Shown here: one piece after another, positions 50,266-64,000 of the stretch
How positions within the stretch are numbered: position 1 is the first letter of the stretch
Layout of the letters: every line of letters begins with the position of its first letter
DNA from: Lentisphaeria bacterium
GTDB taxonomy: Bacteria; Verrucomicrobiota; Lentisphaeria; JABSQK01; JAWLHB01
Direction of reading: 5' to 3'
Assembly (NCBI GenBank): GCA_041690595.1
Contig: JAWLHB010000011.1
Location: 124,001-188,000, forward strand
DNA length: 64,000 nt
Position numbers and translations under genes: made by a program
The notes under the pieces: model-generated
Databases searched by the model: none
What the model was told of the DNA's origin: nothing
The model's input: the letters and a program-made list of their open reading frames with translations, nothing else

Positions 50266-50967
50266 CCACATTGCCGGGCCTGTCGAGCTAACCCTCCGGA
50301 AATGTGCCAGGGCTTGTGATCATGCAGTGCCAGATGCAGCCGGTGGTGCCACCCATTGTATGGTGGCCACCAATAAGGTGGGAGGCGTTCTCCGAACGGC
50401 GATCATGCGCACAGCCAACTCCACTCAATCCAGAAAATCCCCCCAACCGTAGCTGTTTCATCCCCTTTATGAGGCCGGGCCAGCCAGTCTGAAGCCTGCC
50501 GCCGGTGGCCACCATCACGTGGGTGGCCACTCATAATGTGGGAGGCGTTCTCCGAACGGCGATCATGCGCATGGCCAACTCCACTCAATCCAGAAAATCC
50601 CACCAAACATTGCTGCACCATTCCCCTTTATGATGTCCGGCCTGTCGAGGCTGAAGACTGGTGTAATTGTGCTCATGCGGGGAGATGGCAATACACCAGT
50701 CGCGGTTCGGAGAACCCCTCCTACATTGGCCGGCCCTGCCACCTCAGTGAGGTGGGAAAATGCTGCTGCACCATTCTTTATGAGGCCGGGCCTGTCGAAG
50801 CTGAGTCTGGTGTAATTGTTCTCACGCGGAGAGGTGGCAATACCCCAGTCGCGGTTCCGAGAACCCCTCCCACATTGCCAAAGCCCAGTCGCGGTTCCGA
50901 GAACCCCTCCCACATTGCCAAAGCCCAATCGCGGTTCGGAGAACCACTCCCACCTTGCCGGGCCTGG
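50266..50967. repeat. REP cluster 1 (6 REPs)
   Basis: Forward REPs at 50378 and 50538; reverse REPs at 50700, 50849, 50889 and 50929. Confidence 0.9.
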
Positions 50968-51073
50968 ATTCCTGCCCGGTTGGCTTGCATTCCGGCAGAC
51001 GGCCAGATATTTTCACTCCTTCACAGCGGTCCCGCGTCAGCCTCAACCTGTCAACCTGCAAGAGCCGATAATC

Positions 51074-52198
51074 ATGAGCGAGAGCGAAACCTGGATTCTG
51101 CCCAATACCCCCGGCACCCGCGTTGGGGTCGCCGTCCTTGCCATCCTTGCCATCATTGGCGGCATCACCACCGGACGGCTCGTCTCCGGCTGGGCTATTC
51201 AACGGCTCACCGACGCCGGTATCCTCGAGGCCGCGGTCGACCCGATGGACGCCATCCCCCTGAGCGCGGTTCCCGGACCACCCCGCGAGGAGGCTATCGA
51301 GTTCATCCTCACCGAGGATAGCTCACAGACCATGCAGCCCCAACCCTCCCCCGAGGAGGAGCGCTGGGCGGATCTCGCCGGCAACTTCTATACCCGCGAC
51401 TTCGTCGAAAACTTCGCCTATGACAAGCCCGGCCCCGATGGCCCATGGGTTCGCGTCTCCTACGCGCCCGCCGGCCAGACCTTCAGCGGCCGCCTCGAAG
51501 CCCGCGGACTCAAGCCCAACTTCGCCTACCAGATCAAGCTGCGCGGCGATTACGACATCGACCGCAACTCATTCGGCGTCATCGGCGGTTATGGGCGCTG
51601 GCGCGGCCCCGGCAAGGACACCAACTATACCGATCAGGAGTTCCTCGAAGCCGTCCACAAGAACGAGTGGGAAGCCTACCTCTTTTTCGACTACTTCGTC
51701 ACCGACGAGAATGGCGATGCCGTCCGCGAGTTCGCCCTCGATCACTCCCTTCACGTCCTCTGGAACGCCACTACCCAGCGGGGCGACGATCTCCCCGAAG
51801 ACCAGCTCGTCCCCGTCCTCCTCGACGCCAGCAATCCCCAGGTCTACTCCCGCCCCAAGAGCGACCCCATCAGCCACTACATCTGGGCCGAGCGCGAGCG
51901 CAACCGCTACGACTTTCCGGAGCAGTTGATCCAGTTGCCCGCCACCGTCTACCGCGCCCAACTCGTCCTCACCGAGGAGAGCTGGCACTCCCGCGCCCTC
52001 GACGGCGGCTGGTGGGCCACCGTCTACACCATGCCCGTCGAGTTCGCCATTGGACCCGATGCCGTGGCCCCGCCTGTCACGTCGACGCCTGTCGGCAATC
52101 AGGAGCCGCTCGATGCCGTCGAAGAGCCCGCTTCCGAGGCGCCCGTTGAGGCTGAAGAGGAGCCCGCTACGGAAACTTTACCGGCGGAAGGGAACTGA
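51074..52198 (+). CDS. Membrane-anchored hypothetical protein
   Basis: ATG 51074 (upstream extension runs through REPs); one N-terminal TM, beta-rich body, acidic tail; strong C3 codon bias. Confidence 0.7.
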   Translation: MSESETWILPNTPGTRVGVAVLAILAIIGGITTGRLVSGWAIQRLTDAGILEAAVDPMDAIPLSAVPGPPREEAIEFILTEDSSQTMQPQPSPEEERWADLAGNFYTRDFVENFAYDKPGPDGPWVRVSYAPAGQTFSGRLEARGLKPNFAYQIKLRGDYDIDRNSFGVIGGYGRWRGPGKDTNYTDQEFLEAVHKNEWEAYLFFDYFVTDENGDAVREFALDHSLHVLWNATTQRGDDLPEDQLVPVLLDASNPQVYSRPKSDPISHYIWAERERNRYDFPEQLIQLPATVYRAQLVLTEESWHSRALDGGWWATVYTMPVEFAIGPDAVAPPVTSTPVGNQEPLDAVEEPASEAPVEAEEEPATETLPAEGN

Positions 52199-52353
52199 TG
52201 GTCAGTGGCTGGTGTCGCAATGGTAGGCGCGGGGCATGCAGGGAGGCACAGCGGAACTTGCAATCCACTCCTCCCATGACCATACTAATAGCAGACACAC
52301 ATCGCGAGCCAAACCCCGCCGGGATTCCTCACTCGCGGGGGCAAAGGAACGAC

Positions 52354-52980
52354 ATGATCTTCCCGCCCAAGCGCACCTCTTCCCCCATCACCACCCGCCC
52401 CTTTACCCTCGTAGAGCTGCTGGTCGTCGTCAGCATTGTCGCTGTGATCATGGGCGTGGCGCTTTCCGCGATCAAGTCGTCCCCGGGTATCGATGGGACA
52501 GCCCGTAATGTCGGGAAGCAACTCATGCTCACCCGCCAGTATGCGATCACGCAGCGCAAGCACATGGCGCTGCTGCTGCCTGAACATCCTGCCACCATCA
52601 ACGATTCTGCAATCATTCATCGTGATGTCGATGGGAAGACGTTTCGCCCTTGCATTGTAGAGGTGGACTCCGCCGGGATGATTACTTTTGAGAAATATGT
52701 TGATGGAACGGAGTGGTTGTACTCCAACCCGAACGTGCTCATCACCGCTACCGGCGGGACTCTTCTGGTGGACGCACCGTTCCCTGAATATGGAGGTGTC
52801 AAGCCAAATGTAAAGTGTATCGTCTTCAAGCCGGATGGCACACTTGTCGGGGCCACTGATGCCAAGGTGGAGGCACGGCCGGACTTCCTGACTCAGGAAA
52901 CCATGACGCAGCCGGTTGTCGTCAGTTGGCTGACGGGACGAATCTCTTATCCGCCTAAGACTCCATGGGAGAAGAAGTGA
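52354..52980 (+). CDS. Minor (pseudo)pilin, GspH/FimT-like
   Basis: FTLVELLVVVSI, RQYAIT, IVFKPDG, LTGRI; ATG 52354 with AAGGA. Confidence 0.8.
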   Translation: MIFPPKRTSSPITTRPFTLVELLVVVSIVAVIMGVALSAIKSSPGIDGTARNVGKQLMLTRQYAITQRKHMALLLPEHPATINDSAIIHRDVDGKTFRPCIVEVDSAGMITFEKYVDGTEWLYSNPNVLITATGGTLLVDAPFPEYGGVKPNVKCIVFKPDGTLVGATDAKVEARPDFLTQETMTQPVVVSWLTGRISYPPKTPWEKK

Positions 52981-52985
52981 CAGGC

Positions 52986-53597
52986 ATGAAGACTACCTCA
53001 CAACGTACCTTCAGGCGCTACTTTAACTTGATCGAGGTCGTCCTGGCCTTGGCGGTCATCGCCATAGGCATGCTCGCCATCATCGGCCTGATCCCCATCG
53101 GTACGAGTGCCACCCGCGATGCGATCGGCCAGAACTACGCCGCCGATGCCGCTGATGAGACGCTGCAGCAATTGTCCAAGTGGTTGAGGAGTGACTGGAC
53201 GACCAACCTGGCGCTGGTTCCAACTGATGCCGCTCTGCCGGACGTAACGCTGCCTTCTTACGGGGCAACCTGGGTGGCCCTTGGAAGCGACCCCAAGGTG
53301 CAGGTCAGTGATGGTGATTATCCGACTGACCCGGCAGGAGGGAATGTCGGCAAGCGGGTCTACCGTTTCTATCATGAATCGGTTGCTGACCCTACGGCCA
53401 TGAGCTTTGAGGGGGTAATCCGCATCTGGAAATCGCCTACCACAGCCTGGGAGATCGACAGCGCTGGCACGTGGGTTGCACGTGAAGATACGTCCTACAC
53501 CAAGCGGCTGCAATTGAACCTCGAGGTCAGTTGGCCGGCATCCATGGAGTATGGGGATCGCCAGAAAATGCAGTACGCGCTGGAGGTCGTTAGATGA
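52986..53597 (+). CDS. Minor (pseudo)pilin, GspI/PilV-like
   Basis: FNLIEVVLALAVIAIGMLAIIGLIP.G, C-terminal LEVSWP. Confidence 0.8.
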   Translation: MKTTSQRTFRRYFNLIEVVLALAVIAIGMLAIIGLIPIGTSATRDAIGQNYAADAADETLQQLSKWLRSDWTTNLALVPTDAALPDVTLPSYGATWVALGSDPKVQVSDGDYPTDPAGGNVGKRVYRFYHESVADPTAMSFEGVIRIWKSPTTAWEIDSAGTWVAREDTSYTKRLQLNLEVSWPASMEYGDRQKMQYALEVVR

Positions 53598-54289
53598 AGC
53601 ATAACTTTGCCAGACACCGGATGACCCTCATCGAAATCCTGGTAGCCATGACCATCCTGATGGTCATCATGTACATTGTCATGCAGACCTTCAGCAGCAC
53701 CCAGATCATCTGGCGCAAGACCGGCCAGACCAGCGATCTGTACGAAAAGGCGCGCCTGATCACATCACTTCTTACGCAGGATCTCCAGCAGATCGCGGTG
53801 AGCGACACACCTGGCGCGGAGATTACCTGGAGCACTTGGACCGCGGGGCTGCCGCCGGATATGCAGATTGCCTTCGTGAGCAGTAGTGGGATCGGTGTCG
53901 AGGCTGGGCCGGACAAGTCTCTCCTGGCGGAGATCGGCTACAAGCATACGGATTCTCGGCTCTTCCGCTGCATCACCACACAAAGTGAAACAGCAGCGAA
54001 ATGGGACTTTCTTGATAATCCCACCAGTACATGGGCGGCAGTTACAAGTTGGGAAGATGAGACGTTGGTGACTGACCATGTCATGGATTTTACGGTCATC
54101 GCCTACAATGATGCATCTGTTGATATGAAGACAACGGCGGCTACGTCTTTTGATGCAAACACGCTGCCGCAGTACATTTACATCGAGTTCACGTTGCGGG
54201 CGATGAATGTGCACGAGAATCAGGCTGACGATAACTCGACTGATCGGAAGTTTTCGAAACTCATTTACTTAGCCCGGGAGTACGACTGA
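53594..54289 (+). CDS. Minor (pseudo)pilin, GspJ/PilW-like
   Basis: MTLIEILVAMTIL, AR......DL, EIGY, LP.YI.I. Confidence 0.8.
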   Translation: MKHNFARHRMTLIEILVAMTILMVIMYIVMQTFSSTQIIWRKTGQTSDLYEKARLITSLLTQDLQQIAVSDTPGAEITWSTWTAGLPPDMQIAFVSSSGIGVEAGPDKSLLAEIGYKHTDSRLFRCITTQSETAAKWDFLDNPTSTWAAVTSWEDETLVTDHVMDFTVIAYNDASVDMKTTAATSFDANTLPQYIYIEFTLRAMNVHENQADDNSTDRKFSKLIYLAREYD

Positions 54290-56901
54290 TGAAAATGCTC
54301 AGCATAATGCCGGGTTCGTCTCGCCGCGAAAAAGGGGTGGCGCTTATCCTGGCGCTTTCTATACTCTCTCTTCTGCTCATCCTGGCCATGAGTTTTGCCT
54401 TTACCGCACGAACGGACAAGGCCGCTTCAGCTAACTATGCGCACAGCGTGAAGTCAAGGCTGCTCGCTGAGTCGGGACTTAGCCGAGTGATTGGATTTGT
54501 GCAAACGGAGCTGTCGGTTCCCGTCGGAGCGACCATTCCCACCAACTTCGCCTTTCCCGGCAATCGCTTCTATACCTATAACCCGGATCCGGATAAGGTA
54601 AGTCACTGGAAGCATCGGACCATGCTCTTCTCGGTCAACCTCACTGCTGCGGACACTGTCGTCAAGCTTGCGCAGGTTGACAGCGAAGATAGAGTGGCTA
54701 TGAAGATCGGTAATGCGCAAATGATTCCCAAAGAGTATGAAGGAGAGAACGAGCTTCCGACTACCATGCGGGACTTCATCTCGTGGGAGAACATCATGAT
54801 CAATGGCCCGGATCCAGGCATTCTTGGACGTTACGCATATTCCCTTTTTGACATGACCGGAATGATTGATCCCAATTATGCTGTCGATCCTCTCGGTGCA
54901 GCCGAGGGGGGCGAAACTCGAACGGGTGCCAGTCTATCAGAAATCAGCCTGCTTTTCGACCCGGCCGACGATGCGGCAAGCGCGGCTTTTTTCCGGAACC
55001 AACTCACTGTTGACAATCCGCGCTGGTTCTCGTATCCGCACATTTTCCGGAGTGCAGGAGGCGTTTTTGGTGATGATACTGCTGTGGCCAGGGTCATGCG
55101 CAGCATCTTTCCGTATACGGTCATGGATCCCGAAAACTACTGGCACGAAGACAATGGTGACTTGGCTCTGACGGATAACGAGCTTTTGGATCGATTCAAT
55201 CTGGCGCTCCTTCCCGGTGACAATACGGACAGCGCCGCAGATAACGCGATCGCGATCTACGATATGCTCACTGGCGGGAGCGTTGGCCGACAAGCATCGG
55301 GTCCTGGGGCGCAGCACAAGTACAGTCAGTGGGTGTGGAGAACGGACGAAACGGATATTTGGTCGGATGAGCACGATCCGGAAAGGCTGAGCGAAGTTCG
55401 GCGTCGCGCCGCACGAATTGCTGCGAATTTCATCGATTATTCGGATGTAGATGATACGCCAACTCTGGTGTACGTAGGCCCTTCGCCATCGTATAGCCTG
55501 ACTGTTGACAGCACGCCGACCTCCAATTGGGAGTATCGCGTTCGGGGGACAGAATCTGTCTACGGACTGGGGGAGGTGCTGGCGGCGCTGAAGATCGACC
55601 GCCAAGCCGGTGTGGATCAGGACAAGATTACAATCACACCGCAGTTCCGCGTGGAAGTCTTCAAGCCTAACTTTGCCGGCGGTGCGGCAACGGCACAGTC
55701 AGTTCAGATCACTTTCAGTTATGTCTTGGAAGGAAATGAAGATACTCCCGCCGTTGTTACGATAAGCAAGGCCAATGAAGTTGTTACCATCCCACTGGTC
55801 GATCCGCCAGACGATCTAACCTATGGTTTGATAAAATACAACGATTGGGTGGACGGAGCTGTCAACGGGCCTTTTGCTGATGCAATGAAAGCCGGCGAGG
55901 GCGATGTGTCCTGCGTGAGCTTTGTCATACATAATGTTACAATATTCGATGCCAATGGTACCGTTGTCCGAGAGTTGCCTGAACGGAATCCTGCATCAGT
56001 GCCTGACCTTTACACGTATAACGGCCCTGATCTTGTCAGTACGGACGCGGGCGCAAGCAGTTATTTCCGTTTGATTCGTGAGATGCATGATCCATTGAAC
56101 GATGGATATCATCAAGGTCTAACCACGCTGTTTGGCGATTATGTCGTGTCGACGGATGAGCCTGTTCATCACGGAGATGTGGCTGGTGGTGGCCTGACTG
56201 CTCTCCCGTATGAGCAAGGCGACCATAGCGCCTTGGTTGTATGGGATTATGATGCGAATGAGTATGGCGATGTCGACGTTGCTAATCTGCCTTTCGTTCG
56301 GCTTGGTGAGATTGGGCGGGTGCACAGCTATCGGGCCGGGCAAAGCTTGCGTTTGTGGAGCGCCAATGATACGGATACTGAGACGCACGACGCCTATCTG
56401 CTGGATATGTTCAAGGTGACTTCCGCCGAAAGTACGCCCGGCAGGATCAACATCAACAGCCGGCAGAAGCTTGTGCTGGACGCCTTGTTTTATGGGACTG
56501 GTGATCCGAGCGGCTTGGGATATACGACGCCCCAAGATGCAACGACTAAACTCTTAAGGTACCGCATCAACGTCAAGGCAGCCCCTTTCACGAATATCGG
56601 GGAACTGGGGAATGTGCCGGAGCTTTGCGGCAATAATCGGTCGGCCAGTGATGCGGAGATTGAAGATCGTATGCATGACATCGCGGAGATGATCAGCGTT
56701 CGGAAAAATTCATTCATGGTTGTCCTCACTGCTGAAGCCTTGCGCGACCTCCCCTTCGAGGTGCCAGGGGCGATTCCGTGGACAAGTTTGGGCTATCGCT
56801 ATGCCGGGGTGCAGGGAGAAACAAAAATTCTCGCGATCCTGGAGCAGGATGCCTTCCTGAATACGATCAAGCTTGTGCGGATGGACTATATCTATGACTA
56901 G
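54289..56901 (+). CDS. Large GspK/PilX-like tip pilin (870 aa)
   Basis: KGVALILALSILSLL (no Glu5), RLLAESG, GRYAY, ANFIDYSD, GRININ, PFTNIGEL. Confidence 0.8.
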   Translation: MKMLSIMPGSSRREKGVALILALSILSLLLILAMSFAFTARTDKAASANYAHSVKSRLLAESGLSRVIGFVQTELSVPVGATIPTNFAFPGNRFYTYNPDPDKVSHWKHRTMLFSVNLTAADTVVKLAQVDSEDRVAMKIGNAQMIPKEYEGENELPTTMRDFISWENIMINGPDPGILGRYAYSLFDMTGMIDPNYAVDPLGAAEGGETRTGASLSEISLLFDPADDAASAAFFRNQLTVDNPRWFSYPHIFRSAGGVFGDDTAVARVMRSIFPYTVMDPENYWHEDNGDLALTDNELLDRFNLALLPGDNTDSAADNAIAIYDMLTGGSVGRQASGPGAQHKYSQWVWRTDETDIWSDEHDPERLSEVRRRAARIAANFIDYSDVDDTPTLVYVGPSPSYSLTVDSTPTSNWEYRVRGTESVYGLGEVLAALKIDRQAGVDQDKITITPQFRVEVFKPNFAGGAATAQSVQITFSYVLEGNEDTPAVVTISKANEVVTIPLVDPPDDLTYGLIKYNDWVDGAVNGPFADAMKAGEGDVSCVSFVIHNVTIFDANGTVVRELPERNPASVPDLYTYNGPDLVSTDAGASSYFRLIREMHDPLNDGYHQGLTTLFGDYVVSTDEPVHHGDVAGGGLTALPYEQGDHSALVVWDYDANEYGDVDVANLPFVRLGEIGRVHSYRAGQSLRLWSANDTDTETHDAYLLDMFKVTSAESTPGRININSRQKLVLDALFYGTGDPSGLGYTTPQDATTKLLRYRINVKAAPFTNIGELGNVPELCGNNRSASDAEIEDRMHDIAEMISVRKNSFMVVLTAEALRDLPFEVPGAIPWTSLGYRYAGVQGETKILAILEQDAFLNTIKLVRMDYIYD

Positions 56902-57418
56902 GACAGCCCGCCATTTGCTGACGCTGATGCTTGGCATGATGCTCTGGCTTGGATGCGCACAGGCGCAAGGCCGTTCGGGCGGCCAGGTCAAGGAGTCGCG
57001 CTACCGGCAAACCGTTTTTCCGCTGGATCGGGAGGCGCAACTGTACGCGGAGAGCGTGAAGGCAATCGAGCAAGGTGAAGAGATTCCGGCTTGGCAAGTG
57101 GTTGCCAATCTTGGTCGCTATTACAAGGAGAAGGCGCGGGAGAGCCTCCCGATTGTGCAGAAGGCACGGCAGGTACGCATGAGTGCCGGATTGACGGAGC
57201 CATCCGTGCCCGAGAAGCGGTACGACTGGATGCTGCAGGTGTCGGCTCACTTGGAGAGGATGTCGAGCATTCCTCGCGCTTTGCGGAGGCAGGAGCTGCG
57301 AGATCCATTGCTTGCGCCCGTGATCGATGTTGAGAAAGCGCCGGAAGTTTATGAACAGATGCGCGAGCAGTTCAAGAAAATGCGAGCCAACGATCCCGCC
57401 CGGGATGCCAAGGAGTAG
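56894..57418 (+). CDS. Secreted helical hypothetical protein
   Basis: Signal peptide MTRTARHLLTLMLGMMLWLGCAQA; overlaps upstream stop and abuts gspG. Confidence 0.65.
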   Translation: MTRTARHLLTLMLGMMLWLGCAQAQGRSGGQVKESRYRQTVFPLDREAQLYAESVKAIEQGEEIPAWQVVANLGRYYKEKARESLPIVQKARQVRMSAGLTEPSVPEKRYDWMLQVSAHLERMSSIPRALRRQELRDPLLAPVIDVEKAPEVYEQMREQFKKMRANDPARDAKE

Positions 57419-57421
57419 AAT

Positions 57422-57922
57422 ATGCGTGATCGTCGATATCGTCGAAGTCTTTTTACGCTGATCGAGATCCTGGTGGTCATGGTGATCATCGTGGTGCTGG
57501 CGGGTGTGCTGATGGCGGGCACAAGGGCGGTCTTCGACAAGATGCGCAAGTCGAAGGCGGAGGCGCAGATCCAGGCGATCACGCTGGCCTTCGAGTCTCA
57601 CTATAATGACCGGGGGTACTATCCGCAGCAGCCGACCAGCGGTAAGATCCCGAAGAGTCTGATTGACGGTGTGACCAATTCGTCGACCGGGCAACTCTAT
57701 CTGAATGTGAAGGATGTGGGCCTGAGCTACGATAAGAATGACTTTCTTGTCGACCCGTGGTTTGATGGGGATGATAAGGGGTTCTGGTACTATCAGTGCC
57801 CGGGGACGCACAATGTGGAGAAGTTCGATCTCTGGAGCCATGGCGCCGATCAGGATGGCTACGACGGCAACAGCGTCGGCACGCTCGATGTCAACGACAT
57901 CACCAACTGGCGCCGGAACTAG
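57422..57922 (+). CDS. gspG: Major pseudopilin GspG-like
   Basis: FTLIEILVVMVIIVVL, Y.D.G.YP, DPW, FDLWSHGAD, DITNW. Confidence 0.8.
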   Translation: MRDRRYRRSLFTLIEILVVMVIIVVLAGVLMAGTRAVFDKMRKSKAEAQIQAITLAFESHYNDRGYYPQQPTSGKIPKSLIDGVTNSSTGQLYLNVKDVGLSYDKNDFLVDPWFDGDDKGFWYYQCPGTHNVEKFDLWSHGADQDGYDGNSVGTLDVNDITNWRRN

Positions 57923-57969
57923 TTTTCGCGCGGGCGGGGATTGCCGGCCCCGATCGCCGTTCAAACATT

Positions 57970-59271
57970 GGCACAGTTCCGGCGGTTAGCCTCGACGTTC
58001 CCGGCAATGTGGGAGTCCCCACCCGGCGTTGCCCGGACCGTTTTCTTCATAAGTCAAAACCCGTTCCGCCACCTGTGTGAGCTCAATGTGGGAGGGGTTC
58101 TCCGAACCGCGACTGGGGCAATGCCATCTGCCCGCGTGAATGCAATTACCCCCGCCTTAGCCTCGACTGGCTGGGCCTTGCAAGGGGATGGAGCAGCAAC
58201 GTTTGGGAGAGAATTTCCTGGATTAAGTGGATTTGGCTGTACGCATGATCGCCGTTCGGAGAACGCCTCCCACATTATGAGCGGCCACCCATGTTATGGT
58301 TGGCCATCGGCGGCCCAGGCGCATGGTCACCTTCATAACCACAATTCATTGTCGACGCCATTCTTGAGGCACAGTTCCGGCGGTTAGCCTCGACGAGCCC
58401 GGCAAGGTGGGAGGGGTTCTCCGAACCGCGACTGGGGCAATGCCATCTGGCCGCATGAATGCAATTACCCCCGCCTTAGCCTCGACGAGCCCGGCCGCAT
58501 GTTGGAACTGGTGCAGCAACGTTTGGGCGAGATTTTCTGGCTTCTTCTGATTTTGCTGTACGCATGATCGCCGTTCGGAGAACGCCTCCCACATTATGAA
58601 CGGCCACCCATGTTATGGTTGGCCATCGGCGGCCCAGGCGCATGGTCACCTTCATAACCACAATTCATTGTCGACGCCATTCTTGAGGCACAGTTCCGGC
58701 GGTTAGCCTCGACGAGCCCGGCAAGGTGGGAGGGGTTCTCCGAACCGTGACTGGGGCAATGCCATCTGGCCGCGTGAACGAAATTACCCAAGACTTAGCC
58801 TCGACTGGCTGGGCCTTGCAAGGGGATGGAGCAGCAACGTTTGGGCGAGATTTTCTGGCTTCTTCTGATTTGGCTGTACGCATGATCGCCGTTCGGAGAA
58901 CGCCTCCCACATTATGAGCGGCCACCCATGTTATGGTTGGCCATCGGCGGCCCAGGCGCATGGTCACCTTCATAACCACAATTCATTGTCGACGCCATTC
59001 TTGAGGCACAGTTCCGGCGGTTAGCCTCGACGAGCCCGGCAAGGTGGGAGGGGTTCTCCGAACCGCGACTGGGGCAATGCCATCTGCCCGCGTGAATGCA
59101 ATTACCCCCGCCTTAGCCTCGACTGACTGGGCCTTGCAAGGGGATGGAGCAGCAACGTTTGGGAGAGATTTTCCTGGATTAAGTGGATTTGGCTGTACGC
59201 ATGATCGCCGTTCGGAGAACGCCTCCCACGTTATGAGCGGCCACCCATGTTATGGTTGGCCATCGGCGGCC
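57970..59271. repeat. REP cluster 2: four tandem ~319-bp units (8 REPs), inverted relative to clusters 1 and 3
   Basis: Forward REPs at 58088, 58407, 58726, 59044 (periods 319/319/318); reverse REPs at 58249, 58568, 58886, 59205. Confidence 0.95.
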
Positions 59272-59473
59272 TGCGAAAAGGTCTGTCGCGGGGACTTGCT
59301 AATGTGGGGATGACTTGGCAAATTACTGGAGTCAAAACGGATCGACATGGTGAGCGGGGGCAGAGCGAAGACCTTCTTCGTCCCGGGAACCAGACGATGC
59401 GGCGCAAGCCCATGCACGCCCTTTGGGGTGATGCATACAAGGATTCAGATCAACGGGGAAGAGAGGTATTACT

Positions 59474-62400
59474 GTGCCAAAACGCGAAGACATCAAGAAA
59501 GTCCTGATTGTGGGCTCCGGCCCGATTGTCATCGGCCAGGCTGGGGAGTTCGATTACTCGGGATCGCAGGCGTGCAAGGCGCTGCGCAAGCTTGGCTACG
59601 AGATCGTGCTGGTGAACTCCAATCCCGCGACGATCATGACGGATCCGGAGATGGCGGATCGTACCTATATCGAGCCGATCAACGCGGAGGTGATCACGCG
59701 GATCATCGAGAAGGAGCGGCCCGATGCGCTGCTGCCGAACCTGGGCGGTCAGTCGGGACTGAATGTCTCGGCGGAGCTGGCGAAGCTCGGGGTGCTGGAG
59801 AAGTACGAGGTGAAGGTGATCGGGGTACAGATCGACGCGATCGAGCGTGGTGAAGACCGGGAGATTTTCAAGGAGACGATGGCGCGTCTGGGCATCGACG
59901 TACCGAAGAGCAAGACGGTCTACAACGTGGCGCAGGCGGAAGCGGTGGCGGAAGAGCTGGGCTACCCGGTAGTGGTGCGGCCGGCGTACACGATGGGGGG
60001 AACCGGCGGCGGCCTGGTCTACAATGTCGATGAGCTGCGGACGATCGCTTCGCGCGGTCTGGCGGTGAGCATTGTCAATCAGGTCCTGATCGAGGAGTCG
60101 GTGCTTGGCTGGGAAGAGCTGGAGCTGGAGGTGGTGCGCGATTCGAAGGACCAGATGATCACCGTCTGCTTCATCGAGAATGTGGACGCGATGGGGGTGC
60201 ATACGGGCGATTCGTACTGCGTGGCGCCGATGCTGACGATCGCGCCGGAGCTGCAGCGGCGGTTGCAGGAGTATTCGTACCGGATCGTGGAGGCGATCCA
60301 GGTGATCGGCGGCACGAATGTGCAGTTTGCGCACGATCCGGAGACGGATCGGGTGGTGGTGATCGAGATCAACCCGCGGACCTCGCGTTCGTCGGCGCTG
60401 GCCTCGAAGGCGACGGGTTTCCCGATTGCGATGGTCTCGTCGATGCTGGCGGGCGGGCTGACGATGGACGAGATGCCCTACTGGCGGGATGGGAGCCTGG
60501 AGAAGTATACGCCGTCGGGCGATTATGTGGTGGTGAAGTTCCCGCGTTGGGCCTTCGAGAAGTTCCGGGGCGTGGAGGACAAGCTGGGGACGCAGATGCG
60601 TGCCGTCGGCGAGGTGATGAGCATCGGCAAGACCTACAAGGAGGCGATGCAGAAGGCAATCCGCTCGCTGGAGATCGGCCGCATGGGGCTGGGCTTCGCG
60701 AAGGACTTCAACAGCCGCTCTCTGGAGGAGTTGCTGCGGATGCTCCGCGATGCCACGAGCGAGCGTCAGTTCATCATGTACGAAGCGCTGCGCAAGGGCG
60801 CGACGACCGACGAGCTGCACCGGCTGACCCACATCAAGGCGTGGTTCATCGAGCAGATGCGCGAGCTGGTGGTACTCGAGGAAGAGATCCTGAGCCACCG
60901 CGGCGGGCTGCTGCCGGACGAGCTCCTGATCCGCGCCAAGAAGGATGGCTTCGCCGACAAGTACCTCGCCAAGCTGCTCGGGTTGACCGAGACGGCGCTC
61001 CGTGAACGGCGCCTGGCGCTCGGGGTGACGGAAGGGTGGGAGCCCGTTCCCGTCAGCGGGGTGGACGATGCCGCCTATTACTTCTCCACCTACAATGCGC
61101 CGGACAAGGTGGTCGCGTCGAAGAATCGCAAGATCATGATCCTCGGCGGCGGCCCGTACCGTATCGGCCAGGGGATCGAGTTCGACTACTGCTGCTGCCA
61201 CGCCGCCTTCGCGGTCAACGATGCGGGGATCGAGAGCATCGTGGTCAACTGCAATCCGGAGACGGTATCGACGGACTACGACACGAGCAATCGCCTCTAT
61301 TTCGAGCCGCTGACGGTCGAAGATGTGCTGAGCATCTACGAGAAGGAGAAGCCCGAAGGGGTCATCATTCAGTTTGCCGGGCAGACACCCCTCAACATCG
61401 CCCGCGAGCTGGAGCGGGCAGGAGTCCGCATTCTGGGCACGACGCCGGACACGATCGATCTGGCGGAAGATCGCGATCTCTTCCAGAAGGCGATGGAAAA
61501 GCTGGGCATCCCGCAGGCAGAGTCGGGCATGGCCAGCACGCTGGACGAAGCGCTCGCCATCGCCGCGCGTATCGGTTACCCGCTGATGGTACGGCCCAGC
61601 TACGTGCTCGGCGGCCGGGGCATGGAAGTGGTGCATGACGAGGAGATGCTGCGTCATTATGTGACCGCGGCCGTCGGGGTGACGCCGGAACGGCCGATCC
61701 TGATCGACGACTTCCTCGACAATGCCATCGAGGTGGAGGCGGATGCGATCTGCGACGGCACCGATGCCTTTGTGCCCGCCGTCATGCAGCATATCGAGCT
61801 GGCCGGCATTCACTCCGGCGACTCCGCCTGCGTGATTCCGCCGGTGAGCATCGACCAGAAGCACATCGACACGATCTGCGAGTACACGCGGCGGATCGCG
61901 ATCGAGATGAAGGTTGTCGGCCTGATGAACATCCAGTATGCCATCGCCCGCGACACCGTCTACATCCTGGAAGCGAACCCGCGCGCCTCGCGGACGGTGC
62001 CACTCGTCTCGAAGGTGTGCGGCATCTCCATGGCGCGGATCGCTACGCAGATCCTGCTCGGCAAGAGCCTGAAGTCCTTCAACCTGAAGCAGTCGGTCTT
62101 CCCCCACTTCGGGGTGAAGGAGGCGGTCTTCCCCTTCAACATGTTCCCCGAGGTCGACCCGGTGCTCGGGCCGGAGATGCGCTCGACGGGTGAGGTGCTG
62201 GGTATGGCCAGCTCCTTCGGCCTGGCCTTCTACAAGGCCGAGGAGGCGACCAAGACCTCGCTTCCTGATCGCGGCACGGTGCTGATCTCGGTCTCCTCGC
62301 GGGAACGCGAGCAGGATCCGGAGAGCCTGCTGGAGGCGTGCCGGGAGTTCACCCGGATGGGCTTCTGCATCCGCGCGACCGACGGGACGCACCGCTTCCT

Positions 62401-62686
62401 GCAGGAGCACGGGATTGCTTCGGAGCATATCCTGAAGCTCTTCGAGGGTCGTCCCAATCTGGCGGATGCGATCTCGAATGGCGAGATCCAGCTGGTGATC
62501 AACACCCCGGGCGGAAAGCTGAGCGCGTACGACGATTCGTACCTGCGTAAGGCGGCCGTGAAGCACAAGGTCTGTTACATCACCACCATGGCGGCAGCGT
62601 TGGCCTCAGCGAAGGGCATCGCCGCCTTCCGCGAACATGGCACCGACGTCCGTGCCCTCCAGGACTACCACCGCGACATCCACTGA
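59474..62686 (+). CDS. carB: Carbamoyl-phosphate synthase large subunit
   Basis: MPKREDIKKVL..GSGPIVIGQA.EFDYSG, NSNPATIMTD, IGQGIEFDYCC, NCNPETVSTDYD, GPEMRSTGE, MGS domain; GTG start. Confidence 0.98.
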   Translation: MPKREDIKKVLIVGSGPIVIGQAGEFDYSGSQACKALRKLGYEIVLVNSNPATIMTDPEMADRTYIEPINAEVITRIIEKERPDALLPNLGGQSGLNVSAELAKLGVLEKYEVKVIGVQIDAIERGEDREIFKETMARLGIDVPKSKTVYNVAQAEAVAEELGYPVVVRPAYTMGGTGGGLVYNVDELRTIASRGLAVSIVNQVLIEESVLGWEELELEVVRDSKDQMITVCFIENVDAMGVHTGDSYCVAPMLTIAPELQRRLQEYSYRIVEAIQVIGGTNVQFAHDPETDRVVVIEINPRTSRSSALASKATGFPIAMVSSMLAGGLTMDEMPYWRDGSLEKYTPSGDYVVVKFPRWAFEKFRGVEDKLGTQMRAVGEVMSIGKTYKEAMQKAIRSLEIGRMGLGFAKDFNSRSLEELLRMLRDATSERQFIMYEALRKGATTDELHRLTHIKAWFIEQMRELVVLEEEILSHRGGLLPDELLIRAKKDGFADKYLAKLLGLTETALRERRLALGVTEGWEPVPVSGVDDAAYYFSTYNAPDKVVASKNRKIMILGGGPYRIGQGIEFDYCCCHAAFAVNDAGIESIVVNCNPETVSTDYDTSNRLYFEPLTVEDVLSIYEKEKPEGVIIQFAGQTPLNIARELERAGVRILGTTPDTIDLAEDRDLFQKAMEKLGIPQAESGMASTLDEALAIAARIGYPLMVRPSYVLGGRGMEVVHDEEMLRHYVTAAVGVTPERPILIDDFLDNAIEVEADAICDGTDAFVPAVMQHIELAGIHSGDSACVIPPVSIDQKHIDTICEYTRRIAIEMKVVGLMNIQYAIARDTVYILEANPRASRTVPLVSKVCGISMARIATQILLGKSLKSFNLKQSVFPHFGVKEAVFPFNMFPEVDPVLGPEMRSTGEVLGMASSFGLAFYKAEEATKTSLPDRGTVLISVSSREREQDPESLLEACREFTRMGFCIRATDGTHRFLQEHGIASEHILKLFEGRPNLADAISNGEIQLVINTPGGKLSAYDDSYLRKAAVKHKVCYITTMAAALASAKGIAAFREHGTDVRALQDYHRDIH

Positions 62687-62695
62687 GTAGTGTGG

Positions 62696-62729
62696 TCGGC
62701 CACCGGCGGCGCCTGCCGCCGGTGGCCGA
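62696..62729. other. Perfect 15-bp GC stem-loop just after carB stop (no U-tract)
   Basis: tcggccaccggcggc-gcct-gccgccggtggccga; right arm also seen inside REP cluster 1 (~50494-50510). Confidence 0.6.
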
Positions 62730-62734
62730 TGCAA

Positions 62735-63470
62735 GTGTGCCACAGCTTGTGATCATGCAGTGTCAGATGCAGCCAATGGCCACCCATGTCATGGGTGGCC
62801 GCCATAATGTGGGAGGCGTTCTCCGAACGGCGATCATGCGTACAGCCAACTCCCCGCCATCCAGATAATCCCCAAGATGCCGCTGCTCTAGCCACTTATG
62901 TGAATGTCCCCCACCTTGCCGGGCCTGCCGAGGCTGAGGCCCATGGCAATTGCATTCACGCAGAGAGATGGCAAGATCCAAGTCGCCGTTCGGAGAACGC
63001 CTCCCACCTTGCCGGGCTCGCCAAGGCCAACCGTCTGGAAATGTGCCACAGCTTGTGATCATGCAGTGCCAGATGCAGCCAGTGGCTGACCCTACCTGGG
63101 GAAGCCACTCATAATGTGGGAGGCGTTCTCCGAACGGCGATCATGCGCATGGCCAACTTCACTCAATCCAGCAAATCTCCCAGATATTGCTGCACCAGCC
63201 CCCGATGATGCCGGTCCGGTCGAGGCTAAGTCTGGGGCTGCTGGCCACCCATGTCATGGGTGGTCGCCATAATGTGGGAGGTGTTCTCCGAACGGCGATC
63301 ATGCGTACAGCCACATCGGAAGAAGCCAGAAAATCTTCCCAGATATTGCTGCACCAGCCCCCTATGAGGCCGGGCCGGTCGAGGCCGAAGTCTTGGGTAA
63401 TTGTGCTCACGTGGAGAGATGGCAAAGCGCAAGTCGCGGTTCGGAGAACCCCTCCCACATTGCCGGGCTG
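62735..63470. repeat. REP cluster 3 (5 REPs) upstream of RAYT
   Basis: Forward REPs at 62809, 63116, 63274; reverse REPs at 62983 and 63434; degenerate GTGGGAGG foot at 63538. Confidence 0.9.
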
Positions 63471-63639
63471 GGGTGCCTTCAACATTTACCGTTCCTTTTC
63501 AAGTTTCGCTTGCATGTCACCGTAGGCCAGTCATAGTGTGGGAGGTTCCTGGCCACGGCAAGGAAAGGACTTTACTGGGGCAGCCATACATGCTAAGCAT
63601 AGAAAGGTTCACGGGTTGCGAAGTAGGGGAGCAATAGTT

Positions 63640-64000
63640 GTGGATAGCAGGACCAATGGTCCGCCGCACGCCGCCGATCTGCGCAAGCATCGGCGGATGA
63701 TAGGGGCCGGCACATTCTTCGTCACAAAATCCTTGCAGCCCAAATGTCCGGCGCTGACGGCGGCCATGCGATCAATCATCGCGGATGCGTTGGCTTTCTA
63801 CGTCTCCGATGGTCGCCTTCTCTGTCGAGCGATGGTCGTCATGCCTGATCACTGGCATGTGCTGTTTGCCCCGTTGCAGCCAGCTTCGCTTTCCTCCGTC
63901 ATGACGAACCTCGATCGGTGGATCGGCAGACAGACCGGGCCTGATCTGGCGGCGGCCGGTTGTCGCTGGCAGGATGGCTTTCACGACACGCGGATTCGGT
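63640..64000 (+). mobile_element. rayT: REP-associated tyrosine transposase (RAYT/TnpA-REP, HUH Y1 family), truncated by window end
   Basis: Manual translation from GTG 63640 (AGGGGAG RBS): MDSRTNGPPHAADLRKHR..TFFVTK..AMVVMPDHWHVLF..WQDGFHDTRIR; adjacent to a REP cluster; absent from the ORF track because there is no stop in the window. Confidence 0.88.

Follow-up and report, generated by a model that had tools for sequence, protein, structure and literature searches.

We analyzed a 64,000-nt stretch of DNA (the window; positions 124001-188000 of contig JAWLHB010000011.1, here C11) from the 8.1-Mb, 99-contig genome of a Lentisphaeria bacterium (assembly GCA_041690595.1, here G000). Seven of nine organism-tagged relatives of a housekeeping protein encoded in the window are from Lentisphaeria, which makes this class the likely host; the assembly contains no 16S rRNA gene. 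It carries clusters of repetitive extragenic palindromes (REPs) and the 5' part of a gene for a REP-associated tyrosine transposase (RAYT, or TnpA-REP; 63640..64000, plus strand, extending to C11:188167). A scan with three mismatches allowed found 19 REP copies in three clusters, at the same coordinates as in the first-pass annotation of this DNA. Cluster 1 (50266..50960) sits between divergent genes and has form A on the plus strand at 50378 and 50538 and form B on the minus strand at 50700, 50849, 50889 and 50929, the last three spaced 40 bp. Cluster 2 (57970..59270) consists of four facing pairs, each with B on the plus and A on the minus strand, in tandem units of 319, 319 and 318 bp that are 92-95% identical to one another. 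Cluster 3 (62690..63470) has form A at 62809 (plus), 62983 (minus), 63116 (plus) and 63274 (plus), and form B at 63434 (minus). A fourth cluster (A plus, then three B minus) follows the RAYT gene, and the clusters on that far side of the gene are at C11:188.2 and 197.1 kb.

The REPs share one frame, in which a GTGG foot and an unpaired 2-nt gap lead into a stem of seven pairs with a TCC loop, followed by a short tail. Form B (for example 58088..58112, plus strand) has the GTGG foot, the 2-nt gap, a G·G mismatch at stem pair 2 and the TCC loop; in form A (58249..58273, minus strand) C-G replaces G-C at pair 3. Across the genome, strict matches to four consensus forms total 173 copies (102 B, 43 A, 16 C and 12 D), and reversed and complement-only control consensus sequences had no match anywhere in it. 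A profile scan raised the count to 224 by adding 51 degenerate copies, using a score cut-off that 3.9 Mb of control sequence, read in two ways, attained twice. The REPs are thus not restricted to the window. Among the 173 strict copies, the foot is GTGG in 131 and GTAG in 10 (in the window, the form B copy at 50700-50724, minus strand), and the loop is TCC in 168. Pair 3 is G-C in 110 and C-G in 56, a compensatory swap between forms A and B, and pairs 3, 5 and 6 covary. Pair 2 is G·G in 145 copies, A·G in 13, C-G in 14 and T·G in one, that is, a purine-purine mismatch in 158. The dinucleotide CT directly follows the REP in 109 of 173 copies. The copy number, the two forms, the mismatch and the GTAG-footed copy in the window had all been recorded in the first-pass annotation, and we recovered each of them. 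The GTRG foot, unpaired dinucleotide, 6-9-bp stem and 3-nt tail are those of GTAG-1 REPs as defined in the text of PMC3733652, and identity with a family listed there is possible. The exact G000 REP was found in none of 350 other genomes of the class, and occurred once on each of two metagenome contigs.

The RAYT open reading frame (ORF) that starts at 63640 and crosses the window end is intact and encodes 175 amino acids. Its HUH motif (H71/H73), catalytic Y131, and N135 and P136 (Y-x-x-x-N-P) are invariant in 46 sequences, and its PF01797 match lies above the cut-off. The best sequence match was 4ER8, the E. coli TnpA-REP, which was also the top Foldseek match (E 2.2e-8) of a structure model with a predicted local distance difference test (pLDDT) score of 91.8; in profile matches, the protein was closer to a Pseudomonas RAYT (E 1.5e-20) than to that of E. 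coli (E 1.5e-13). The gene is single-copy, and the nearest REPs lie 182 nt before and 59 nt after it. We checked seven other Y1-family loci and found none of these REPs within 1.5 kb of them. As the only Y1-family locus among those checked with these REPs alongside, the RAYT is likely the cognate enzyme, and the GTGG-footed REPs that flank it are likely its substrates; by analogy with characterized RAYTs, it likely copies the hairpins. The proposal of a RAYT-REP system made for this window thus extends to an intact gene with the same REPs on both sides and throughout the genome. Separately, near-identical genes for a Y1-type transposase of ~310 aa occur at C12:39000-40000, C41:36500-37600, C46:1-700 and C65:30000-31100, each preceded by a tandem array with a unit of ~22 nt.

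Facing pairs take in 14 of the 19 window REPs, with six A/B pairs of 187 (50538..50724), 186, 186, 185, 186 and 185 bp and one A/A pair of 199 bp; these pair lengths agree with the earlier description. In one cluster 2 unit, form B (58088..58112) is followed by a B tail (58113..58176, plus strand), and form A by an A arm of ~62 nt (58186..58248, minus strand). A second hairpin (58283..58305) belongs to the 5' flank of A, with similar copies at 50505-50530, 58602, 58920, 59239, 62778 and 63243; it folds at -7 to -12 kcal/mol, and its strict matches are on this contig only, with looser ones on C66 and C70. Spacers measure 133-149 nt in facing pairs overall and 133-137 nt in A/B pairs. Array copies are near-identical within arrays, as would be expected under the ongoing amplification proposed for this window, but A/B spacers from different clusters are only 72-89% identical (69% for one pair). 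The earlier statement that the ~136-nt spacer is not self-complementary was borne out, as the spacer folds no better than shuffled sequences (z +1.06; 172 of 200 shuffles fold as well). Within a facing pair, only the REP ends base-pair and the halves show no detectable homology. Predicted fold energies are -41.9 kcal/mol for an A/B pair and -55.2 kcal/mol for the A/A pair, the two being of unequal lengths.

The B tail is a homologue of a 68-nt linker that recurs genome-wide. The commonest tandem period is 93 bp (26 BB neighbours), composed of a REP and this linker, and in the B halves of facing pairs 46-55 of 64-65 positions agree with linkers from other contigs. The end of the linker is the motif that the first-pass annotation had seen twice in each 319-bp unit; both this motif and the second hairpin are present, and the motif occurs twice per unit because the B half carries the linker homologue. 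We found 108 linker copies at 49 loci on 33 contigs, and never on both strands at one locus. Linker identity is 93% inside clusters and 70% between them, the latter reaching up to 96%, a pattern that fits dispersal followed by local copying. The A arm, by comparison, was found 17 times in the genome, at 8 loci, and 13 of these copies are no more than 13.3 kb from the RAYT gene. We considered whether the 186-bp pair is two diverged 93-bp units, and rejected this: on the linker profile the 15 A arms scored no better than shuffles (z -1.75 to +1.38), and pairwise tests of arm against linker gave p <0.05 in 3 of 9 cases, which we attribute to the first 15 nt. Away from the RAYT region, form A occurs in B-type flanks; the A/A pair is likewise an A sequence occupying a B position, and the copy at 62983 in cluster 3 is an A sequence within B flanks. 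Stem type and arm are therefore not fixed to each other.

Some variants of these arrays were seen in passing. Two linker subfamilies in 93-bp units on C2, C6, C14, C15, C16 and C49 differ by offsetting 1-nt indels that keep the period at 93 bp, and a constraint on length is possible. Almost linker-free ladders of REPs with a 36-40-bp period occur in the window at 50849-50953, at C27:235-403 and at C68:342-402. Many arrays are capped by a variant that has the foot but another hairpin, in the window at 57988-58050 and also on C2, C5, C14 and C16.

Genome-wide, REP neighbours are arranged very differently from those in the window. Strict copies within 450 bp of each other form 105 relations, of which 91 are tandem, 10 facing and 4 back to back. 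Nine of the 10 facing pairs lie between 13.1 kb before and 9.2 kb after the RAYT gene, and the tenth lies on C16 and takes in a composite whose B is truncated. With the 224 profile copies, the numbers are 125 tandem, 10 facing and 4 back to back, and outside the RAYT region 116 tandem against one facing. The claim that A and B usually face each other thus holds in the window, with the A/A pair included in the 14 of 19 copies, and fails for the genome. The long A/B composite, put forward as a distinctive architecture, is nearly confined to the RAYT neighbourhood, and REP heterodimers, the G·G mismatch and REPs in the Planctomycetes-Verrucomicrobia-Chlamydiae (PVC) bacteria all have precedents; the composite is a local structure, and the evidence does not support it as the distinctive unit of the system. 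The polarity noted earlier does exist, but as a genome-level property of the one-sided 93-bp unit. In G000, REPs are mostly not inverted doublets under ~130 bp apart and the entire element is not an imperfect palindrome, as would be the case for REPINs (REP doublets forming hairpins). Inverse REPs with a conserved linker, often in tandem, as in bacterial interspersed mosaic elements (BIMEs), are found in the RAYT-proximal clusters only.

We therefore interpret the window as a RAYT beside its likely cognate REPs, where the A/B composite was likely produced by local joining and tandem copying, with the one-sided 93-bp unit of REP plus tail as the genome-wide unit. We give this reading a probability of roughly 55%. 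Its anatomy, distribution, strand bias and intact enzyme were directly observed, and the mechanism is borrowed from the enzymes of E. coli, Stenotrophomonas and Marinomonas (PMC3333891, PMC8266576). By that analogy, the RAYT would bind the folded single-stranded REP, reading the foot and probably also the purine-purine mismatch, with stem irregularities or loop bases being needed, and would nick at C|T and join strands. New sites would thereby receive one-sided units on a single strand, and arrays would grow from these by local duplication, giving a two-step spread of dispersal and then local amplification. The composite would stem from the tail-to-tail joining of a B unit and an A unit, the latter bearing its own arm and 5' hairpin, and cluster 2 would be a recent fourfold duplication of it. 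Pairing two REP types would weaken the long hairpin and may help pairs to persist. A single REP with its tail, rather than the usual pair, may thus be what spreads in G000.

The same distribution could arise if ordinary REPINs had lost one half. Pairs would then have been spread by the RAYT, the REP of one strand being deleted or mutated everywhere except beside the RAYT gene, and the survivors copied in tandem by host slippage or recombination. This agrees with the view of single REPs as remnants (PMC3116915, RAREFAN preprint), with the plain 85-bp facing pairs made by the closest RAYT of the same order, and with the truncated B in the facing composite on C16 and A-arm remnants on C27, C53 and C70. 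The sensitive profile scan, however, added 51 more degenerate copies and no inverted partner hidden in the tandem arrays, one-sided linkers are up to 96% alike across different clusters, and the B linker is present at 49 loci, the A arm at 8. We consider such a loss unlikely.

The arrays also follow strand. G/C skew, measured at four-fold codon positions, loses its autocorrelation by 32 kb and shows no relation to the direction of genes (526 vs 510). REPs lie on the C-rich strand as judged from 36 of 48 5' flanks and 31 of 40 3' flanks. A copies with an A arm depart from this bias, with 9 on the G-rich and 6 on the C-rich strand. The p values of these strand biases are overstated, because clusters are not independent and gene calls, made with our own caller, are crude. 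The skew patches themselves are ~30 kb long, often with an abrupt start and a slow decay, and skew averaged on the REP strand turns positive 16-48 kb to the 5' side of clusters.

One of the seven other Y1-family loci, C26:500-1108 (L004; NF047646, 91.8 bits), is a second RAYT. The hairpin repeat on its flanks is a different one, numbers 233 copies in the genome and is interspersed with the first family in mosaics on the same strand. The second family has 133 tandem and 3 facing relations, its strand is C-rich in 72 of 82 5' flanks and 57 of 71 3' flanks, and in all 55 near-neighbour cases its strand is that of the first family. Mixed clusters number just two in the second family, one beside its RAYT and one where a contig starts. 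From the agreement of two unrelated RAYT families on strand, we infer that orientation is set by the host process behind the local G/C strand patches. Taken further, the mobilized unit would be a single REP with its 68-nt tail, inserted on one strand of the strand-bias patches, with facing composites surviving only where they bracket the RAYT gene. Two unrelated RAYTs would then have switched together, so that the choice between paired and one-sided modes would depend on how the host supplies single-stranded DNA rather than on the enzyme. We offer this extension tentatively, as a possibility that may well prove wrong.

A stronger role for the host can also be imagined, in which a host or phage-derived strand-specific DNA process, the maker of the skew patches, spreads the arrays and the RAYT supplied only the original hairpin. 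The polarity common to both RAYT families and their mixed mosaics would fit this, as would the higher skew beside clusters (0.318 vs 0.227, maximal within 4 kb of them) and the absence of a CT-junction signal. Against this, the foot, loop and stem are conserved with compensatory changes, as expected if the RAYT still reads them, and no passenger gene recurs, as no family touches more than 4 of 62 clusters. This makes spreading by a strand process alone quite unlikely. One of the families that touch 4 of 62 clusters resembles, in our own reading of its sequence, a small terminase subunit; such small-terminase-like ORFs lie between or beside REPs, antisense to the REP strand, at C7:56659-58296, C12:1908-2942 and C29:1-1114.

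Five clusters lie within long ORFs of the crude gene caller, and we treated those ORFs as repeat-derived. Of 34 clusters, 8 are located between convergent genes, an excess over the 115 such cases among 1564 gaps (p 0.003). Together with the compensatory stem changes, this excess would suit units maintained as RNA elements, either terminators or mRNA stabilizers, whose structure reflects that role. Yet REP orientation ignores transcription (24 sense, 20 antisense), cluster 1 sits between divergent genes, no structured RNA family in Rfam matched at E up to 1, and the units showed no excess of promoters or terminators (2 terminators found, 3.6 expected). We regard an RNA function as very improbable.

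Several results weigh against our preferred reading of a one-sided, RAYT-copied unit. The RAYT scores 69.9 bits against the cut-off of 80 for NF047646 (E 2e-19), its sole family match. CT was not enriched at the ends of shared flanks (25 of 166, 22.5 expected) or in a second junction count (14 of 143, 19.5 expected), in tests that mix point mutations with junctions. Strand-biased mutation within REPs was significant when all positions were used (33 vs 4) but no longer so once tolerant positions had been removed, leaving a G-to-A excess of 15 vs 4 (p 0.065). If the G-rich strand is the exposed one, as in IS200-family elements (PMC3971601), the REPs are on the unexpected strand. Dependent clusters, crude gene calls and the many arrays that break contigs add to these points.

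Some of those contig breaks coincide with another mobile element. Eight left ends (C11:197700-197793, equal to L001:13700-13793, and C15, C30, C36, C42, C52, C65 and C85) and eight right ends (C5, C13, C22, C28, C37, C57, C66 and C72) of one element coincide with contig ends. Of the 16 junctions, 15 share a single position in the REP foot, and the remaining one falls in a linker site that resembles it. The element has a 9-bp inverted repeat, set back 6 nt from the left junction and 3 nt from the right, and TG is present at both junctions. Inverted repeats that are sub-terminal and unequally extended, together with a single fixed target, are the marks of IS1111/IS110 elements, and these ends come close to the IS1111 rule (PMC11187229). 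The body of the element is unassembled and no DEDD transposase for it was found in the assembly. About 40 nt of its left end match the upstream region of an IS110-family transposase gene in another genome of the class (G077; E 1e-3, weak), the one examined of five weak matches in the class; metagenomes gave no match to the body, and plasmids nothing real. Judged from its ends, the element is probably an IS110/IS1111 member with about eight copies, and it would be another RNA-guided recombinase with a multicopy target. A left-end fragment also abuts a REP at C55:13092-13133.

Relatives of the RAYT place the system among known kinds. Using the alignment of 46 homologues, we retrieved 79 genome loci, 71 of which have a REP of the same foot-and-gap frame. 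In a tree of 54 rows (42 translated listed loci, 10 loci from kin and three references, with one frameshifted locus dropped), the RAYT falls in a 32-row clade (support 88/96) that mixes Lentisphaeria, Verrucomicrobiota, Acidobacteriota, Sumerlaeota and Actinomycetota; the tree backbone is unresolved. G·G at pair 2 occurs at 9 of the 79 loci, one of them in Pseudomonas ovata. Facing hairpins with two different stems are found at L036, L037, L038, L040, L043, L046, L093, L094 and L112. Because both recur among related loci, heterodimers and the mismatch are habits of the clade and not inventions of G000. Facing spans at related loci are mostly 51-123 bp, longer ones being those of L114 (150-152 bp) and a single 200-bp span at L007. 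At L047-L106, mostly from Chthoniobacterales and other Verrucomicrobiota, the RAYT gene lies within a single facing REP pair, with hairpins ~45 nt before and ~35 nt after the gene, like an insertion sequence with two ends.

The closest RAYT, 46% identical, is from a genome of the same order (G007), whose REPs share the frame and the mismatch. Its 95 REPs give 41 facing and no tandem neighbours, 36 of the facing spans being 80-89 bp, so that all 41 neighbours face in G007 while 116 of 117 are tandem in G000 away from the RAYT. In the standard model of how REPs are spread by RAYTs in vivo, it is the inverted doublet that moves, and single REPs are dead remnants; the two genomes form a natural experiment on the unit of movement. 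The clade also supplies natural REP variants for work on recognition, including G·G at pair 2, a purine mismatch at pair 5 and perfect stems.

Between clusters 1 and 2, the window segment 52354-57922 has a lower G+C content than carB. Its N-terminal motifs suggest a run of prepilin-type genes, together with a gene for an 870-aa protein.

GTAG-type REPs in PVC bacteria were published in 2013 (PMC3733652), and REP heterodimers and tandem clusters are known (PMC3733652, PMC8266576, PMC6006769, PMC3116915, PMC3333891, PMC5581495 and the RAREFAN preprint). These sources describe head-to-tail dimers as rare in most genomes, with some families largely clustered. In the PMC6006769 supplement, at least two of the three rows for GTGGGAG are Pseudomonas of subclass 2.5, and no row of its table is named Lentisphaera, Opitutus, Acidobacter or Planctomy. 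In the literature covered, in which subscription journals were thinly represented, we found nothing on Lentisphaeria REPs or on a genome-wide one-sided RAYT family.

Compared with group 3 (subclass 2.5) RAYTs and their GTAG-1 REPs, including those of Pseudomonas and the Marinomonas REPtron Mb (PMC3733652, PMC6006769, PMC8266576), the G000 system shares the GTRG foot, two unpaired bases, short stem and 3-nt tail, a foot plus stem of 13 nt, the W/Q/D/R foot-reading residues, a closer profile match to a Pseudomonas RAYT, and several RAYTs per genome, each with its own REP. It differs in the separate 32-row clade of its RAYT, in a tree where host and REP type mark just three rows as group-3-like, and in a C-terminal WP extension. 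Group 3 REPs are called generally perfect, whereas G·G is fixed in G000, although the Pseudomonas locus L114 has G·G too. The REP frame, the two-type facing pairs and the mismatch are therefore known already, recurring beside related RAYTs in several phyla, including in Pseudomonas. As in the E. coli BIMEs (BIME-1 y-L-z1, BIME-2 and atypical; PMC3333891), two different REPs face across a conserved non-palindromic linker, tandem copies are alike within a locus, modules form mosaics and the stem has a mismatch. The spacer, however, is 133-137 nt, against 20-100 bp in most dimers (PMC3733652), and pairs are a small local minority, unlike in E. coli, where single REPs number 84 of 584. This is a real REPtron with BIME-like flanks, known in kind and new in sequence. 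The inserting element resembles the REP-targeting IS110/IS1111 elements IS621, ISPpu10 and ISPa11 (PMC11187229) in its fixed REP-foot point, sub-terminal inverted repeats and unequal extensions, and differs in a repeat of 9 bp perfect (11 with one mismatch) where 11-13 is usual, and in its unassembled transposase. The GI and GI-GIII arrays of Pseudomonas fluorescens SBW25 (PMC3116915) are likewise same-strand with a fixed period, and their orientation differs between the two sides of the chromosome. In SBW25, 13 tandem loci stand beside hundreds of doublets, whereas in G000 one-sided arrays predominate and track skew patches of ~30 kb. The noteworthy part of this system is the one-sided, strand-locked spread of REPs across the genome, set against a relative, G007, in which they are paired.

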